From: Escherichia coli
GTDB lineage: Bacteria > Pseudomonadota > Gammaproteobacteria > Enterobacterales > Enterobacteriaceae
DNA length: 64,000 bases
Direction: 5' to 3' (one strand)
Assembly (NCBI RefSeq): GCF_022846255.1
Contig: NZ_AP025682.1
In this document: piece by piece, positions 20,367-54,121 of the stretch
Position numbering within the stretch: the first letter of the stretch is position 1
Layout: each line of letters starts with the position of its first letter
The notes under the pieces: model-generated
The model's input: only the letters and a program-made list of their open reading frames with translations
Told to the model about the DNA's origin: nothing
The model's database searches: none
Translations under genes and position numbers: made by a program

Positions 20367-21023
20367 ACTTAACTCCACTGTCACACTTAACTCCCTTTCC
20401 CTTATTGGAATGCAGAGAAATAATCCTCGAGAATATGATTTATCATGCATATAAAATAAGAAAAAGCAAAATGAGTAAAATTAGGAAAACATAAAGATAC
20501 AGGTTCTGATAAAAACAGAATCCACTGCCGAGCAAAGAGTTATTTACTACAGCATAATAATCCATAATGTTTTTGTTGCGAAAACAATCTAATCATAACT
20601 ACCACGAATACTCAATCATCCACAAAATGGATTAAATGTGCTTTTTAATAATTAATTTATATGTTTAATGCATTAATTCTTAACATTAATTGATCAATAA
20701 TATTCAGCAAATGAATATCAAAAAATTCGCAAAACATATAATTCAATACAAATCATCAAGATAGGTTTTGCAACGCGTGCATTTTATCCCCCTTTCCCTC
20801 GTTGATTAGATGCAAAAAATTATTCTGAAATATGTCAACCGATGAAAAGCATCGGCGGTTAAGCAGAAATTAATATCGCTTGTTTTAACCACCGCAGCAC
20901 AATTAGCTAATTTTACGGATGCCGAACTCACAATGGCGTGACGTTTTTATTGCTTCAGGGTTGACATCCGTTTTTGTATCCAGTAACTCTAAAAGCATAT
21001 CGCATTCATCTGGAGCTGATTTA

Positions 21024-21110
21024 ATGACTCACATCGTTCGCTTTATCGGTCTACTACTACTAAACGCATCTTCTTTGCGCGGTAGACGAGTGAGCGGCAT
21101 CCAGCATTAA
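21024..21110 (+). CDS. leuL: leu operon leader peptide (28 aa, four consecutive Leu codons)
   Basis: [28 protein letters not shown] is embedded at the end of track ORF 20919..21110; sits immediately upstream of the attenuator hairpin and leuA. Confidence 0.9.
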
Positions 21111-21130
21111 GCCAGCACGCAGTCAAACAA

Positions 21131-21159
21131 AAACCCGCGCCATTGCGCGGGTTTTTTTA
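21131..21159 (+). terminator. leu attenuator, rho-independent terminator
   Basis: AAACCCGCGCcattgCGCGGGTTT followed by a T-run, between leuL stop and leuA start. Confidence 0.85.
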
Positions 21160-23866: not shown

Positions 23867-25883
<2,017 letters not shown>

Positions 25884-25912
25884 TTTGTACACCGTCCGGC
25901 ACTCAATCGCCA

Positions 25913-26143
25913 AAAAGAAAAAAGCCAGCAGATAATCACTGCTGGCGTGGCGATTAACACCAATACTCAGTCACACATGATGTCCGCAAATCAGTAGTCA
26001 GAATGACTCCCCTCCCACTGCATCAGTTCTTCAAGCATGGTTAATCGTTGTGGGACGCTTAACCAACGCAACCAGCACAACTTCGCTATCGCGGTAAAAT
26101 AGTGCTGATAAAACTGACGCATGGGGCACCTCCTTGCTTCATC
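25913..26143 (-). ncRNA. sgrS: SgrS small RNA (glucose-phosphate stress); contains the sgrT ORF and a 3' hairpin plus U-tract terminator
   Basis: Minus strand begins GATGAAGCAAGG...; 3' region carries the GUGUGACUGAGUAUUGGUGU pairing segment and ends in GCCAGCAG...CUGCUGGC hairpin plus U-run; divergent from sgrR. Confidence 0.85.
25991..26122 (-). CDS. sgrT: SgrT small protein (43 aa) encoded within SgrS
   Basis: MRQFYQHYFTAIAKLCWLRWLSVPQRLTMLEELMQWEGSHSDY is the C-terminal part of track ORF 25991..26242; located inside the sgrS 5' region. Confidence 0.8.
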   Translation of the reverse strand: MRQFYQHYFTAIAKLCWLRWLSVPQRLTMLEELMQWEGSHSDY

Positions 26144-27894: not shown

Positions 27895-28005
27895 TAACGC
27901 CGTTCTCAACGGGGTGCCACGCAGCCGCGTGCGCTGAGAAAATACCCGTCGAACCTGATCCGGATAACGCCGGCGAAGGGATTTGAGGCTCCTTCTCAAG
28001 TCCTT
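27895..28005 (+). promoter_or_regulatory. TPP (thi-box) riboswitch in the thiBPQ leader (corresponds to SroA)
   Basis: CUGAGA ... ACCUGAUCCGGAUAACGCCGGCGAAGGGA thi-box elements read directly, immediately upstream of thiB. Confidence 0.85.
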
Positions 28006-31394: not shown

Positions 31395-32159
31395 CTAAAC
31401 CCCAACCACTTTACGCAAAATATCGATATACACCGGCATCAACGGGTGGCGAATTAACACCACCAGCGCCACCACGCCGATGGCAGAAATCAACGGCGTC
31501 AGCCACAACAAACGACCGCGGGACAAATAATGACTCAAACGGTCAGTCGCTTTACCGCTGCGCCATAACCGCCAGCACAGCCAGCCTCCAACCCACAAAA
31601 ACACCGCTGTTGCCAGCAGCAACCATTTAAACTCACCGCTCTGCATCCCGGCAGGAATATCGATCGCCGCACCCGCCAGAATCCCCGGCAGGAAGTAAAA
31701 CGGTGGCCACAGCAAGCAGCCGATAATATTCGGCGTAATAAATTTTGCCACCGGGAGATCCAGCATTCCCGCCACCATTGGCACCAGCGGACGCGTCGGG
31801 CCGACAAAACGACCGACCAGAATGGTGAACATGCTGTGCTGATGCAGCGCATGTTCGGTTTTATCGAGTAATGCTTTGTTCTTCTTCAGAAATGACCAGC
31901 GATGCAACGGCTTTTTAAAACGCCAGCCCAGCCAGAAGGAGATCCAGTCGCCCAGCAGGCAGCCAATAATCCCCGCCAGCCAGGCGTACCAGAAACTTAA
32001 CTCACCGCTGCCAATCAGTGCTCCCAGCCCCGCCATCAGCACCGTACCGGGTAGAATCAAACCGACCAGCGCCAGCGACTCCAGAAAGGCCACCAATAAC
32101 ACCGCCATCAATGAATACACGGTAGATTGGGTAATAAAGTGTTCCAGCAATGCTTGCAT
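31395..32159 (-). CDS. yabI: DedA-family inner membrane protein YabI
   Basis: Track ORF, 254 aa, MQALLEHFITQSTVYSLMAVLLVAFLESL... Confidence 0.95.
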   Translation of the reverse strand: MQALLEHFITQSTVYSLMAVLLVAFLESLALVGLILPGTVLMAGLGALIGSGELSFWYAWLAGIIGCLLGDWISFWLGWRFKKPLHRWSFLKKNKALLDKTEHALHQHSMFTILVGRFVGPTRPLVPMVAGMLDLPVAKFITPNIIGCLLWPPFYFLPGILAGAAIDIPAGMQSGEFKWLLLATAVFLWVGGWLCWRLWRSGKATDRLSHYLSRGRLLWLTPLISAIGVVALVVLIRHPLMPVYIDILRKVVGV

Positions 32160-32244: not shown

Positions 32245-32292
32245 TTATGACAACTTGACGGCTACATCATTCACTTTTTCTTCACAACCGGC
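32245..32292 (-). pseudogene. Displaced araC 3' remnant (last 15 codons plus stop: AGCEEKVNDVAVKLS*)
   Basis: Minus strand reads GCCGGTTGTGAAGAAAAAGTGAATGATGTAGCCGTCAAGTTGTCATAA, the canonical AraC C-terminus, about 1.8 kb away from the intact araC body. Confidence 0.85.
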
Positions 32293-32313
32293 ACAAAAGA
32301 CACCCTCTGCCTA

Positions 32314-32736
32314 TCATTCGATAGTCTCAAAATATTCCACCTGCAGAGAATCACGGTGCTCAATGATGCAATAACGCTGGAAATTATTTGCATAATCACT
32401 TTTATCATGAAAAAACCATATACAATCGTTTTGTAGACTCGGTCCCATTCTTTTCAAAAAATCTATTAGCTTTGCTTTCTGAAGAAAAATGTTATCTATA
32501 TTTCGCCATGTAACAATCACTCTTGTTTGCATATCATCAACATTATAGTAATAGCTATACTCGGCTACGTTTGATATGTTTGGCAAATTTCGCAAACTCT
32601 CTGGCGTATAAAGGAAAAATGGGGAAAGTTCATGCTGTGTATAGTGATGTTCCTTTGACATCAATGAGATATAAGCATAGAAAAATATAAAGAATAAAAC
32701 TAAAAATGATAATAAAATATAAATATATTTTGACAT
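32314..32736 (-). CDS. Hypothetical membrane-anchored protein, 140 aa (insertion gene B; candidate partner/immunity protein)
   Basis: Track ORF; N-terminal about 21-residue hydrophobic segment YIYILLSFLVLFFIFFYAYISL; ATG 6 nt after the gene A stop (translational coupling); AT-rich codon usage. Confidence 0.7.
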   Translation of the reverse strand: MSKYIYILLSFLVLFFIFFYAYISLMSKEHHYTQHELSPFFLYTPESLRNLPNISNVAEYSYYYNVDDMQTRVIVTWRNIDNIFLQKAKLIDFLKRMGPSLQNDCIWFFHDKSDYANNFQRYCIIEHRDSLQVEYFETIE

Positions 32737-32742
32737 CTCTAC

Positions 32743-33591
32743 TCACGACCTGTGCGGATAATGAGGGTTTAAGAAAAGAAAAAGCGGTCTTTCAAAGGGA
32801 GATTCTGAAAACTTTATAGCTCCCGAACTTGATAATGAACTATACAACTCATGATTTATTCTGTTTTTATCTTTATAATAATTAGTAACAGGTCTATTAT
32901 TATATTGATTATATAACAATGTTGAAAAAGACTCATCTAATGGCTTTATATAATTTAACCATTCTGGAAGCTTCTTTTTTATTAGTTGATTTTTTTTAAA
33001 AGGAGGATGGGTTGTAAATAAGAATGGCGTAAACTCAGTATTTTTAAAATTCCCTGGCGCTCCATATGTATCCCATATTTGTAAGGCTTTTGTGTAAGAT
33101 AAAGGTTTTGCCAATAAAAGTGGATCGGGGCCTGTTCCAAATACACGATAAAAACCAATCAAGTCTGAGACTAAATCTTCTGCACTAAATCCGCTATCAG
33201 TATACCAGTTAAAAATAAATGAGTTTTGCCATGCTTCAAACCTCTTCGCAGTTCCATACATTAACGTTAAGGCAACTCTTGCTTTAAGAGTGGGTGAAAG
33301 ACATGAACGAACCATAACCTTCGTATAAACACCGGTATGAAATGTAAGATCTACTCCTAATATTTTTTTCCGAATTCCCATTTCCTGATGATAATCAACA
33401 GGAAAATACCAATCATGAAATTCATCGTAATATGTTGAAAAATGTTCTTGCTCCAATTTTCTTTTTAATATTCTGGCATCTTGTCCCTGAGCATGCCCCA
33501 AATCGATCCAACCTAACTCTTCGGTATAAACTAATCCATACTTTTTCGTTGTTGCAAATATTCCATCAGTAATATCGTTACGTTTTCTCAT
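32743..33591 (-). CDS. Hypothetical protein, 282 aa (insertion gene A), no family recognised
   Basis: Track ORF 32743..33594 (GTG) trimmed to adjacent ATG; strong Shine-Dalgarno GAGGGGAG 6 nt upstream; no signal peptide or TM segment; Asn/Tyr/Lys/Ser-rich C-terminal third. Confidence 0.7.
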   Translation of the reverse strand: MRKRNDITDGIFATTKKYGLVYTEELGWIDLGHAQGQDARILKRKLEQEHFSTYYDEFHDWYFPVDYHQEMGIRKKILGVDLTFHTGVYTKVMVRSCLSPTLKARVALTLMYGTAKRFEAWQNSFIFNWYTDSGFSAEDLVSDLIGFYRVFGTGPDPLLLAKPLSYTKALQIWDTYGAPGNFKNTEFTPFLFTTHPPFKKNQLIKKKLPEWLNYIKPLDESFSTLLYNQYNNRPVTNYYKDKNRINHELYSSLSSSGAIKFSESPFERPLFLFLNPHYPHRS

Positions 33592-34070
33592 CACAATCTC
33601 CCCTCAAAAAAAACGTATAGCAAATAATATCAATAAGGAAAAATATTATTTTTCAATATTTTTTTGTATACAATTCATTTTATGAATGAATTTACAAAGA
33701 TAGCTGCGCCTGATGCCGCTACACTTTTGCCAGACCATGTTCTCCTCTGAGGGAGTAACTGGCGTTTTTCATAGAATGCCGTACTTTTTTCAACAACTGC
33801 CACATCGAACGGCATTTATGGTGGCGTGAAGTGCCTGCCATAACCGCTCAATGTGGTGTTCCTACGATGAACAAACCGCTTGATATATTCTCCTGATGCA
33901 ACCGGACAATATGTTCATGATGGGTATCCCGATACATAAGCCTTCGTTTTATTTTTACAAAAAGAAATCGTTGTCGATATTTTATCAAGAAAAAAAATAA
34001 TTCAGGTAAAACGATTCAACTAAAAATAACTAAAATTAATCCCCCGTGAAATATATAAATAACGTCAGAT

Positions 34071-34104
34071 GAAGAAAGCAAGGGGGTTCCCCCCCTTCTT
34101 TCTT
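34071..34104. terminator. Near-palindromic G5/C7 hairpin immediately 3' of the truncated araC stop (candidate terminator, possibly bidirectional)
   Basis: GAAGAAAGCAAGGGGGTTCCCCCCCTTCTTTCTT read directly; followed by a T-rich tract on the plus strand. Confidence 0.45.
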
Positions 34105-34105
34105 A

Positions 34106-34951
34106 TTATTCACAACCTGCCCTAAACTCGCTCGGACTCGCCCCGGTGCATTTTTTAAATACTCGCGAGAAATAGAGTTGATCATCAAAACCGACATTGC
34201 GACCGACGGTGGCGATAGGCATCCGGGTGGTGCTCAAAAGCAGCTTCGCCTGACTGATGCGCTGGTCCTCGCGCCAGCTTAATACGCTAATCCCTAACTG
34301 CTGGCGGAACAAATGCGACAGACGCGACGGCGACAGGCAGACATGCTGTGCGACGCTGGCGATATCAAAATTACTGTCTGCCAGGTGATCGCTGATGTAC
34401 TGACAAGCCTCGCGTACCCGATTATCCATCGGTGGATGGAGCGACTCGTTAATCGCTTCCATGCGCCGCAGTAACAATTGCTCAAGCAGATTTATCGCCA
34501 GCAATTCCGAATAGCGCCCTTCCCCTTGTCCGGCATTAATGATTTGCCCAAACAGGTCGCTGAAATGCGGCTGGTGCGCTTCATCCGGGCGAAAGAAACC
34601 GGTATTGGCAAATATCGACGGCCAGTTAAGCCATTCATGCCAGTAGGCGCGCGGACGAAAGTAAACCCACTGGTGATACCATTCGTGAGCCTCCGGATGA
34701 CGACCGTAGTGATGAATCTCTCCAGGCGGGAACAGCAAAATATCACCCGGTCGGCAGACAAATTCTCGTCCCTGATTTTTCACCACCCCCTGGCCGCGTA
34801 TGGTGAGATTGAGAATATAACCTTTCATTCCCAGCGGTCGGTCGATAAAAAAATCGAGATAACCGTTGGCCTCAATCGGCGTTAAACCCGCCACCAGATG
34901 GGCGTTAAACGAGTATCCCGGCAGCAGGGGATCATTTTGCGCTTCAGCCAT
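34106..34951 (-). CDS. araC: Arabinose operon regulator AraC, C-terminally shortened (281 aa; ends ...EFRAGCE*)
   Basis: Track ORF 34106..35002 trimmed to [23 protein letters not shown]...; matches AraC throughout but stops 11 codons early at TAATAA where the AT-rich insertion begins. Confidence 0.92.
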
Positions 34952-38503: not shown

Positions 38504-38525
38504 GTAGCCGCATCAGGTATGTAAC

Positions 38526-38689
38526 GCCTGATGCGACGCTGACGCGTCTTATCAGGCCTACACGCTGCGATTTTGTAGGCCGGATAAGCAAAGCGCATCC
38601 GGCATTCACCGCCTGATGCGACGCCGACGCGTCTTATCAGGCCTACACGCTGCGATTTTGTAGGCCGGATAAGCAAAGCGCATCCGGCA
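38526..38689. repeat. Tandem BIME: two copies of a 79-bp unit, each containing two REP palindromes, in the araA-araD spacer
   Basis: Unit GCCTGATGCGACGC(T/C)GACGCGTCTTATCAGGCCTACACGCTGCGATTTTGTAGGCCGGATAAGCAAAGCGCATCCGGCA at 38526-38604 and 38611-38689 (1 mismatch). Confidence 0.85.
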
Positions 38690-45589: not shown

Positions 45590-45680
45590 AGGCCGGAGAA
45601 GGCGTTCACGCCGCATCCGGCAATTTTGCGCCGATTGCCTGATGCGACGCGGGCCGCGTCTTATCAGGCCTACACGTTGA
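45590..45680. repeat. REP palindromes between convergent rluA and djlA
   Basis: GGCGTTCACGCCGCATCCGGCA and GCCTGATGCGACGCGGGCCGCGTCTTATCAGGCCTAC motifs. Confidence 0.75.
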
Positions 45681-52640: not shown

Positions 52641-53489
52641 ATGGCGACATACCTTATTGGCGACGTTCATGGTTGTTACGATGAACTGATCGCATTGCTG
52701 CATAAAGTAGAATTTACCCCTGGGAAAGATACCCTCTGGCTGACGGGCGATCTGGTCGCGCGCGGCCCGGGTTCGCTGGATGTTCTGCGCTATGTGAAAT
52801 CCTTAGGCGACAGCGTACGTCTGGTGCTGGGTAATCACGATCTGCATCTGCTGGCGGTATTTGCCGGGATCAGCCGCAATAAACCGAAAGATCGCCTGAC
52901 ACCGCTGCTGGAAGCGCCGGATGCCGACGAGCTGCTTAACTGGCTGCGTCGCCAGCCTTTGCTGCAAATCGACGAAGAGAAAAAGTTGGTGATGGCCCAC
53001 GCAGGGATCACGCCGCAGTGGGATCTGCAGACCGCCAAAGAGTGCGCGCGCGATGTAGAAGCGGTGCTGTCGAGTGACTCCTATCCCTTCTTCCTTGATG
53101 CCATGTACGGCGATATGCCAAATAACTGGTCACCGGAATTGCGGGGGCTGGGAAGACTGCGTTTTATCACCAACGCCTTTACCCGTATGCGTTTTTGCTT
53201 CCCGAACGGTCAACTGGATATGTACAGCAAAGAATCGCCGGAAGAGGCCCCTGCCCCACTGAAACCGTGGTTTGCGATTCCTGGCCCCGTTGCTGAAGAG
53301 TACAACATCGCCTTTGGTCACTGGGCATCGCTGGAAGGCAAAGGTACGCCGGAAGGTATTTACGCGCTGGATACCGGCTGCTGCTGGGGTGGTACATTAA
53401 CCTGCCTGCGCTGGGAAGATAAACAGTATTTTGTCCAGCCGTCGAACCGGCATAAGGATTTGAGTGAGGGAGAGGCGGTAGCGTCTTAA
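52641..53489 (+). CDS. apaH: Bis(5'-nucleosyl)-tetraphosphatase (symmetrical) ApaH
   Basis: Track ORF, 282 aa, [20 protein letters not shown]...; metallophosphatase motifs GDxHG, GNHD. Confidence 0.96.
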
Positions 53490-53800
53490 ATCCCGTCGAG
53501 CATAAAATCTAATGCTCCTTTAATCAACGTTCGGTGCGCGCTGGCATCGCAAAATTTCGTTCCCAGCGCGTTAACTGGAACAGTTGCAGTCTCATGCGTC
53601 ATGAGCACATATTCTTTGCCGTCTACCAGTAAAAGGATTGGGTTAAGCCGTTCTGGTGGGCGAATACGGCTAAATCGTTCAATAGGTGTTAATGGAATAA
53701 CGATACGGCGATTAATCTCACCAATAATGTCGCTGGTAACATCAATAACAAAGGGAAACGCGGCGTTCCTGCCGCGACTGCGGTATACCGTAAATTGCAT
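53486..53800 (-). CDS. ccdB: CcdB-family toxin (gyrase poison), chromosomal copy
   Basis: Track ORF, 104 aa; MQFTVY..., [16 protein letters not shown] and C-terminal FMLDGI align with F-plasmid CcdB landmarks; 4-nt convergent overlap with apaH stop. Confidence 0.88.
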
Positions 53801-53802
53801 CG

Positions 53803-54036
53803 CTAGAAGCTCCGGTACTCATCAGAGAAACATCCGGTTTCATCAGCCAATTGATTTAACGCAGCGATAGCTTCTGCGTTCTCTTCACGCCAACGTGTTG
53901 CTGCATGTTTTTTAAGTTCAGCATTGAGCGCAACCGTAAGGGTGGCGCTCATATTTAAGCCTGCATCACGAGCGCGATTGACTAACTCACGGTCGACGGT
54001 GACGGTCACACTTTGTGTGGTACGTTTTGCAGTCAT
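53803..54036 (-). CDS. ccdA: CcdA-family antitoxin, chromosomal copy
   Basis: Track ORF, 77 aa; VTVTVD, RWREENAEA and C-terminal SDEYRSF align with F-plasmid CcdA; immediately upstream of ccdB. Confidence 0.88.
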   Translation of the reverse strand: MTAKRTTQSVTVTVDRELVNRARDAGLNMSATLTVALNAELKKHAATRWREENAEAIAALNQLADETGCFSDEYRSF

Positions 54037-54121
54037 GATCTCGTGCTCCTGTACAATTTATACGTCTAGTATACACGGATATCTGCACGTATCAGTGATG
54101 CCGGAATTCTAATATACAAAA

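Follow-up and report, generated by a model that had tools for sequence, protein, structure and literature searches.

The 64,000-nucleotide stretch of Escherichia coli DNA analysed here (contig NZ_AP025682.1 of assembly GCF_022846255.1, hereafter the window) carries, between yabI and araC, two small genes that RefSeq labels 'hypothetical protein', and it is this pair, which we call A and B, and the cassette they occupy that concern us. The gene order is thiP-thiQ on the plus strand, yabI and araC on the minus strand and then araBAD on the plus strand, and the two open reading frames (ORFs) are read from the minus strand, in the same direction as araC and yabI. They sit on an island that appears as a window-only segment in alignment to the K-12-type genome DL21 (Table 1), and its aligned limits are close to the 32293-34108 given in an earlier note on this DNA. 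The distance from the araC stop to the yabI start is 1,946 nt in the window versus 85 nt in DL21, which bears out that note's figure of less than 100 bp in K-12 and its estimate of about 1.95 kb here. The description of the extra DNA as strikingly AT-rich holds as well: GC content runs between 0.28 and 0.39 along the segment versus 0.49 to 0.63 in the flanks, and is 0.339 for the island as a whole versus 0.527 for the whole window.

The two same-strand ORFs, of 282 and 140 amino acids (aa), are present as the note had them, including a predicted membrane anchor on the second. The ATG at 33591 is the probable start of A, with a ribosome-binding site, GAGGGGAG, 6 nt 5' of it. The ATG of B follows 6 nt 3' of the TGA of A, so that the ORFs do not overlap in the window, and the translational coupling stated in the note is plausible. 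A second statement, that no transposase gene lies inside, has to be given up, since roughly 200 bp of the interval between araC and A is a remnant of insertion sequence IS630. The RefSeq annotation of uropathogenic E. coli (UPEC) 26-1 has, between araC and A, a pseudogene for an IS630-family transposase that is partial and frameshifted, and the window DNA is 72-80% identical to annotated ISEc33-like IS630-family transposase genes. The remnant is missing from the corresponding Citrobacter cassette, where only 167 nt separate araC from A.

Table 1. Features of the A-B cassette and its immediate flanks, in window coordinates
Feature	Position (strand)	Description	Basis
Island absent from K-12-type genomes	32295-34101	1,807 bp, GC 0.34	Window-only segment in alignment to DL21
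Gene A	32743-33594 (-) from GTG; 32743-33591 (-) from ATG	283 aa; 282 aa	ORF and ribosome-binding site
CapCone-1 core domain of A	33136-33585 (-)	Residues 3-152; predicted catalytic H33, E119, D139; motifs G27-W-I-D30-L-G-H33 and S133-G-F-S136-A-E-D139	
Gene B	32314-32736 (-)	140 aa	ORF
Predicted N-terminal transmembrane anchor of B	32659-32727 (-)	Residues ~4-26	Model helix 2-26; Kyte-Doolittle value (19 residues) 2.55
yabI, flanking gene	31395-32159 (-)	DedA-family protein	ORF and RefSeq
araC, flanking gene	34106-34951 (-)	281-aa form ending ..FRAGCE*	ORF and RefSeq
Degenerate IS630-family (ISEc33-like) transposase remnant, araC-A interval	~33690-33897 (-)		RefSeq pseudogene and DNA identity
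Terminator-like GC hairpin	34080-34097 (-)	Directly 3' of araC stop	Consensus scan only
araC-side direct-repeat copy	34105-34121 (-)	GGCAGGTTGTGAATAAT; final araC codons and TAA stop	
araC 3'-end relic	32245-32293 (-)	..AGCE-EKVNDVAVKLS*; includes yabI-side repeat copy 32277-32293	

The cassette is a true insertion at the araC stop codon. On its yabI side lies a relic of the araC 3' end whose register is identical to that of the K-12 araC tail, and the K-12 positions for the last araC codons are found on both sides of the island. AraC is 281 aa long (ending AGCE*) in the window, as in island carriers generally, and 281 aa also in Citrobacter, versus 292 aa in K-12, and the 11 extra residues of the K-12 protein (EKVNDVAVKLS) are the very sequence kept as a non-coding relic beside B; where the functional window copy has TAA, K-12 and the relic have GAA. 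The insertion accounts for this difference of 11 residues between K-12 AraC and the 281-aa form. The two repeat copies agree at 13 of 17 positions in E. coli. The Citrobacter cassette has the same araC relic downstream of B, and its occupied site is bounded by a 17-bp direct repeat, CGCTGGATGTGAATAAA, that is perfect (locus L105, 4331-4347 and 5821-5837); the empty Citrobacter site reads ...CGCGCTGGATGTGAATAAAAAGTG... and holds the repeat in single copy (locus L103, ~4331). Among Citrobacter genomes whose AraC proteins are identical, occupancy varies, 7 of 8 distinct places being empty, and neither an integrase nor a transposase lies in or near the Citrobacter cassette, nor any recombinase at the locus. 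The insertion is old, or has been exchanged through its flanks, and today both E. coli and Citrobacter are polymorphic for its presence, with the E. coli copy having additionally acquired the IS630 fragment. A test for recent import gave flank values of 0.94-0.95 beside the island; across the window the median is 0.976 and the 5th percentile 0.94, so that the outcome is not decisive. Cassette GC content is low everywhere examined. A long-form A-B cassette also occurs between araD and polB, across the ara locus from the araC-yabI site, in Leclercia, Trabulsiella, Enterobacter sp. ENT03 and Buttiauxella (loci L021-L024 and L026), with no flanking repeats of 12 bp or more at these araD-side cassettes; the long-form clade is associated with the ara region twice over, in separate positions.

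Within E. coli, the full island is found in 486 of 5,426 complete genomes (about 9%), always chromosomal, in single copy and at least 98.5% identical, and so the alternative that the genes are ancestral and universally present here, with K-12 as the exception, falls away. Carriers include 536, UTI89, LF82, Nissle 1917, ATCC 25922, APEC (avian pathogenic E. coli) O2:K1 strains and SMS-3-5, which we take to be members of phylogroups B2 and F. In Nissle 1917, a 1-nt deletion at the equivalent of window position 33363 splits A into ORFs of 78 and 190 aa and leaves B intact.

Neither A nor B matches anything in PADLOC (no match at E <= 1), NCBIfam or PHROGs; single-sequence Pfam searches return only a sub-threshold DUF4056 for A and nothing for B; and searches of PDB sequences with the single proteins give chance matches only, while a profile built from fusion proteins matched through its LysM portion only. 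A nevertheless has a large family: a word-index search gives about 300 homologs, and 727 cluster representatives are found at E <= 0.001. It comes in long forms of ~280-290 aa (in Citrobacter, Salmonella, Trabulsiella, Leclercia, Enterobacter, Buttiauxella and Rahnella) and short forms of ~230 aa spread across Enterobacterales. The key to this family lies in the recently described Lipocone superfamily, which unites Wnt, SAA, VanZ, PTDSS1/2 and TelC in a total of 30 families (Burroughs, Nicastro and Aravind, eLife 2025, PMC12419801; bioRxiv 10.1101/2025.01.14.632903). Lipocone domains share a helical 'cone' whose active site consists of a His in helix H2, a Glu in H3 and an Asp in H4, and the activity predicted for them is to cleave or exchange lipid head groups attached through phosphate; CapCone members are marked by a Gly 6 residues before the H2 His, an xD/DK motif 4 before it and S/GxxSxx ahead of the H4 Asp, and the wider clade by a Ser 3 before the H4 Asp, usually after Phe, with a small residue and Asn at +3/+4 (PMC12419801).

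In our view A is almost certainly a CapCone-1 member. An E. coli sequence in the published CapCone-1.tsv, CAR16209.1, is identical to residues 3-152 of A at 149 of 150 positions, and the string LGWIDLGHA is carried by 40 entries in that file. In an alignment of 23 sequences the putative catalytic residues H33, E119 and D139 are invariant, as they nearly are in 12 remote fusion proteins, and in the model H33 lies early in helix 31-48, E119 late in helix 100-122 and D139 early in helix 137-151. Also invariant in the alignment, with the motifs again close to invariant in the 12 remote proteins, are G27, W28 and D30, which fit the Gly at -6 and the xD motif before the H2 His, and D132, S133, G134, F135 and S136, which fit S/GxxSxx before the H4 Asp with an aromatic-preceded Ser at -3. 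DUF4056, a sister CapCone family, is matched by 14 of the 23 members at E <= 0.1 (best 1.8e-6), and no other Pfam family is. The AlphaFold2 model of A (pLDDT 81) places strands at 20-23 and 27-30 directly before the H33 helix, with short helical turns only in residues 1-19, and the maximum 19-residue Kyte-Doolittle window is 0.96, with neither signal peptide nor transmembrane segment; A is thus predicted to be soluble, with the β-hairpin 'clasp' leading into H2 and the degenerate H1 that CapCone requires. Our structural comparison of A with TelC found no similarity, and so the superfamily link rests on the published profile analysis together with the motifs. An early guess that A might be a papain-like amidase, suggested by 'CxCGWID' in some relatives, was dropped since the Cys is not conserved. 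All of this means that the cassette is not the undescribed system proposed in the earlier note: this kind of cassette has been known computationally since 2025, when CapCone-1 was catalogued and its combination with a PsbP/Mog1 gene tallied in 89 loci; its E. coli member is in the published dataset, and it is very probably a real, biologically meaningful conflict module. The Lipocone findings are themselves wholly computational, and the paper gives no account of the E. coli araC-yabI locus (PMC12419801).

Our locus survey took one genome per species and kept 80 loci, nearly all from Enterobacterales, and several of the surveyed genomes hold 2-4 paralogous A loci. In 13 of the 80 there is an Hcp homolog no more than 7 kb away, and in about 8 it stands directly upstream of A. 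In Citrobacter sp. On2M (L078) the order is TssK-TssL-OmpA-like-Hcp-TssH/ClpV-A-B-VgrG, a core cluster of the type VI secretion system (T6SS) by NCBIfam annotation; Buttiauxella brennerae (L024) has araD-TssD/Hcp-A-B-polB, again by NCBIfam, with a long-form A 53% identical to that of E. coli; and Pectobacterium cacticida has hcp-A-B-B. Fusions tell a similar tale. In protein P0273, a TEN_YD-shell/Rhs core ending '...YGYRFYNATIGRWLSRDPIEEYG' is followed by the A domain and then by a 116-aa lipoprotein-like gene; in P0260 an eCIS_core/DUF4157 region (E = 5e-32; eCIS, extracellular contractile injection system) stands N-terminal to the A domain; the AFDB50 matches include one RHS core protein; and other long relatives join LysM to the A domain, which suggests a peptidoglycan-related substrate. 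In its Rhs/YD and eCIS relatives the A domain is thus a C-terminal tip, as in polymorphic toxins, and the A of the window stands alone, unfused. The downstream PsbP/Mog1-like gene, the upstream hcp and the Rhs and DUF4157 fusions, all of which we found independently, agree with the published CapCone-1 tallies: N-terminal RHS in 94 and DUF4157 in 21, HCP upstream in 8 and downstream in 8, and downstream PsbP/Mog1 in 89 and Imm-BamE in 23 (PMC12419801). There, CapCone-1 is placed under polymorphic toxins and not antiviral immunity, with 'Biological conflict' as a statistically enriched theme (PMC12419801), and a DUF4056 bicistron in variable region 2 of the Salmonella SPI-6 T6SS has been proposed as a T6SS effector (PMC11669294). 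The A-B pair also occurs as an 'orphan' among unrelated core genes in E. coli, Yersinia, Serratia and Enterobacter, and the island carrier 536 has a complete T6SS ~170 kb from the cassette. A toxin or conflict role for the A family is, we believe, very probable. In Serratia quinivorans (L016, 11211-12436), next to mfd, the A-B pair is directly followed by a resolvase fragment, a 222-aa protein and a 95-aa protein with several transmembrane segments, and this stretch may hold another effector/immunity pair, making the site a small islet of toxins.

What, then, of B? A single-sequence search with B finds almost no relatives, and the small genes that lie 3' of A elsewhere are nonetheless homologous to it, a profile search gathering a family whose proteins measure 137-158 aa. 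In 70 of the 80 loci the gene directly downstream of A belongs to the B family, mostly with an ATGA overlap, and tandem B copies are present in 5. Identity between E. coli and Citrobacter is 36% for B versus 70% for A, and in the Yersinia and Rahnella comparison ~18-20% for B versus 40-50% for A. An N-terminal hydrophobic helix is found in all members, and because its N-side is more positive than its C-side in 21 of 22, B is predicted to be oriented N-in/C-out with a periplasmic domain. The best structural matches are the periplasmic proteins PA1624 and DcrB. Modelling thus casts B as a predicted inner-membrane-anchored, periplasm-facing protein of Mog1/PsbP/DcrB-like fold, set apart from DcrB, DUF1795 (the Eag chaperones) and PA1624 by its anchoring through a transmembrane helix and not a lipobox, and from the Eag chaperones also because those are cytoplasmic. 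None of the 22 members has a sequence-level Pfam match, and B does not fit the layout of Imm-BamE, which is membrane-anchored with a two-helix hairpin followed by three β-strands.

The published analysis labels the PsbP/Mog1-like partner of CapCone-1 a transport domain (PMC12419801), and here we part company with it, since we consider B to be probably an immunity protein. We favour immunity because B is predicted to face the periplasm, forms tandem arrays and evolves fast; because it occupies the slot that Imm-BamE takes in other CapCone-1 loci; and because it is the only other gene in the repeat-bounded cassette and has stayed intact in Nissle 1917 despite the frameshifted A. In several Citrobacter loci (L008-L011, L105), B carries a poly-A tract at about codon 87 whose A9 allele is in frame and whose A8 and A7 alleles are frameshifted, with A intact; these variants may reflect phase variation or homopolymer sequencing error. 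As an argument against immunity they were set aside, both as poly-A length variants and because TelC producers tolerate loss of immunity: a frameshifted B beside an intact A would be tolerable since cells lacking tipC, the TelC immunity gene, are harmed only by their neighbours' TelC.

Putting these strands together, we lean towards the view, as somewhat better than an even proposition, that the cassette is an orphan T6SS-type antibacterial effector/immunity pair acting, in the manner of TelC/TipC, on undecaprenyl-linked envelope precursors. The earlier note had seen in the locus a compact operon of a soluble protein and a membrane-anchored partner of toxin/immunity type, inserted relative to K-12, and in this it was right. 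What we infer about the enzymatic activity of A, its substrate, the delivery route in E. coli and the immunity role of B would run as follows. A would be a soluble Lipocone enzyme of the CapCone-1 family that, by analogy with TelC, uses its His-Glu-Asp active site to cut the phosphate link that joins a head group to its polyisoprenoid carrier lipid, the substrate being lipid II or another undecaprenyl-diphosphate-linked envelope precursor at the periplasmic face of the inner membrane, and cell-wall synthesis in the attacked cell would be blocked. Because A lacks an export signal, it would be harmless in the cytoplasm of its producer and would depend on a T6SS to carry it into the periplasm of adjacent cells, most likely as cargo associated with Hcp. 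B, at the outer face of the inner membrane, would bind and neutralise the toxin injected by sister cells. The layout is that of an effector without a Sec signal beside a co-oriented immunity gene whose product is predicted to reach the compartment where the toxin would act. The TelC analogy and the LysM fusions make lipid II the leading substrate candidate, although we would put lipid II specifically at a little under an even chance; whether T6SS delivery is active in E. coli B2 strains we regard as evenly balanced.

Several known systems help to give shape to this proposal. TelC is, to our knowledge, the only characterised toxin of the Lipocone superfamily. With its immunity protein TipC, from Streptococcus intermedius, it is a lipid II phosphatase toxin belonging to a type VII secretion system (PMC6193138), and its placement in the superfamily is published (PMC12419801). 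TelC is inactive in the producer cytoplasm, and tipC-less cells are unharmed by their own TelC; TipC carries a transmembrane segment at its N terminus together with an extracytoplasmic inhibitory domain, and tipC occurs as tandem paralogs (PMC6193138). The A-B pair would share with it a toxin of the same superfamily, and B shares the TipC layout, having a transmembrane segment at its N terminus along with a predicted extracytoplasmic domain, as well as the tandem copies. A second point of reference is provided by the Tae/Tai, Tge/Tgi and Tlde1/Tldi1 pairs, T6SS cargo systems that act in the periplasm and are encoded in variable regions of enterobacterial T6SS loci, in which a small signal-less effector is followed by a periplasm-directed immunity gene beside hcp or between clpV and vgrG, and also as orphans. 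This is the same layout as that of A-B, in the hcp and clpV-vgrG contexts of the A relatives, the difference being that Tae, Tge and Tlde1 effectors hydrolyse or cross-link mature peptidoglycan, whereas A is predicted to attack a lipid-carrier phosphate linkage. Colicin M, finally, is an E. coli toxin that cleaves lipid II at the undecaprenyl-phosphate linkage in the periplasm, with Cmi as its inner-membrane-anchored periplasmic immunity protein. The proposed attack on lipid II and the anchored periplasmic immunity are alike, but the colicin M fold is unrelated to A, and colicin M is a plasmid-encoded, released bacteriocin that enters via FhuA/TonB, unlike the T6SS route that we propose for A. 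We found no T6SS effector with TelC-like predicted activity in the searched literature, and it is a tentative idea, one that we would hold well short of an even bet, that A could be the first T6SS-delivered TelC-like lipid II/undecaprenyl-pyrophosphate phosphoesterase and that B could found a new transmembrane-anchored Mog1/PsbP-like immunity family, contrary to the published 'transport domain' label. An assay for lipid II phosphatase by thin-layer chromatography or high-performance liquid chromatography is available (PMC5892711).

A number of observations do count against an active effector/immunity pair in E. coli. The searched literature holds no experiment on any CapCone protein. In the enterobacterial clade that includes A, the residues at +3/+4 after the H4 Asp are S142-D143, with Asp and not the usual Asn at +4; remote members have S-N ('EDLVSNL') there. 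The neighbours of the cassette in E. coli are araC and yabI, with no T6SS gene adjoining. The terminator-like hairpin after the araC stop implies that A needs a promoter of its own, and a scan upstream of A found none above chance (12 promoter-like sites versus 8.6 +/- 3.4 in shuffles). The AT-rich DNA of the cassette may be silenced, and since A is split, in a three-ORF annotation, in about 12 of 60 sampled carriers (ATCC 25922, clone D i14 and IMT5155 among them), the toxin is dispensable and decaying in some lineages. Several of these points lend weight to the idea that the E. coli cassette is an inert, silenced, decaying relic of an effector/immunity family, no longer expressed or secreted, and what speaks for it is this: neither hcp nor vgrG adjoins, no convincing promoter stands beyond the hairpin, GC content is low, an IS630 remnant lies inside, A is frameshifted in Nissle, and the cluster of 202-aa truncated A counts 385 sequences versus 963 for the full-length form. 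We think it unlikely all the same, because both window genes are intact with every predicted catalytic residue in place, the island is so highly conserved across its carriers, and carrier 536 has a full T6SS; orphan effector/immunity pairs far from a T6SS cluster are, moreover, commonly functional.

Another possibility takes the published partner annotation at its word: B would serve T6SS secretion of the CapCone-1 toxin as an adaptor or loading chaperone, and immunity would be absent or encoded elsewhere. This strikes us as quite unlikely. The known T6SS adaptors (Eag, DUF4123 and DUF2169) act in the cytoplasm, whereas B has its predicted N-in membrane anchor in nearly all family members and finds its best structural matches among periplasmic proteins, and A has neither transmembrane helices nor a PAAR domain for an Eag-type chaperone. 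Tandem arrays, and an evolutionary rate about twice that of A, are likewise at odds with an adaptor, as is the position of B in the Imm-BamE slot of a repeat-bounded cassette with no other candidate immunity gene.

The earlier note also entertained a phage-defence module, and one can picture an intracellular A that destroys lipid-linked wall precursors once B or another sensor detects infection, as in abortive infection. Some Min-Wnt and prok-TelC domains that stand alone and carry no secretion signal have indeed been proposed to have antiviral roles (PMC12419801), and A lacks a signal peptide. Yet PADLOC is empty, there are no defence genes nearby (the neighbours being araC, yabI and the thi and ara operons), the relatives sit in T6SS clusters, after hcp or as Rhs and eCIS toxin tips, and CapCone-1 has been classed with the polymorphic toxins, all of which makes this very improbable. 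The same slim probability attaches to a secretion-free variant confined to B2 and F E. coli, in which membrane-bound B would sense envelope or phage damage and release or activate cytoplasmic A to destroy undecaprenyl-linked precursors, giving a self-contained abortive-infection or envelope-suicide module derived from a T6SS toxin family. A classical cytoplasmic toxin-antitoxin system does not agree with a partner predicted to face the periplasm, and the type II class was rejected given the anchored B and the lack of any match to a toxin-antitoxin family in Pfam or NCBIfam. Least probable of all, to the point where we would scarcely entertain it, is that A is a housekeeping or adaptive envelope-lipid-modifying enzyme with B as membrane partner, as one might argue from the many Lipocone families in lipid, peptidoglycan and exopolysaccharide metabolism (PMC12419801) and from Yersinia, Serratia and Enterobacter, where the pair lies amid core genes and no T6SS is close by, since it has against it the patchy occupancy even among Citrobacter genomes with identical AraC, several paralogs per genome, low GC content everywhere, a fast-evolving partner, the T6SS, Rhs and eCIS links of the relatives and the enrichment of 'Biological conflict' for CapCone-1 (PMC12419801).

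The window holds a few other features, which we record for completeness. A 650-bp segment between apaH and folA (53463-54112), absent from the K-12-type genome, carries a chromosomal ccdA/ccdB pair, unrelated to the A-B cassette, with ORFs at 53803-54036 and 53486-53800 on the minus strand that RefSeq names CcdA and CcdB, and it is found in 2,025 of 5,426 complete genomes. At 25878-25917, 40 nt stand in place of setA, a sugar efflux transporter gene of which the K-12-type genome has ~1.26 kb between leuD and sgrT/SgrS. Rfam identifies the leu leader (21010-21158), SgrS (25917-26143), a thiamine pyrophosphate (TPP) riboswitch upstream of thiB (27900-27999) and naRNA4 (45591-45670), all ordinary for the region. 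Between araA and araD (38509-38689), short segments have more than one alignment in the K-12-type sequence, which suggests that repeated elements, perhaps like repetitive extragenic palindromic (REP) sequences, are present in a different copy arrangement.

We think that the A-B cassette deserves attention for several reasons. Pfam, NCBIfam, PADLOC and RefSeq leave both genes hypothetical, even though the predicted targets of the A family are the lipid carriers on which cell-wall synthesis runs, a step that is also the target of glycopeptide antibiotics, colicin M and TelC. The cassette makes a convenient E. coli model, being intact in strains such as 536 and UTI89, missing from K-12 and, in the probiotic strain Nissle 1917, present with a natural frameshift, and it could settle whether the Mog1/PsbP-like partner has a role in immunity or in transport. 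For the organism itself, the cassette may add to competition in the gut among extraintestinal pathogenic and commensal B2 strains.

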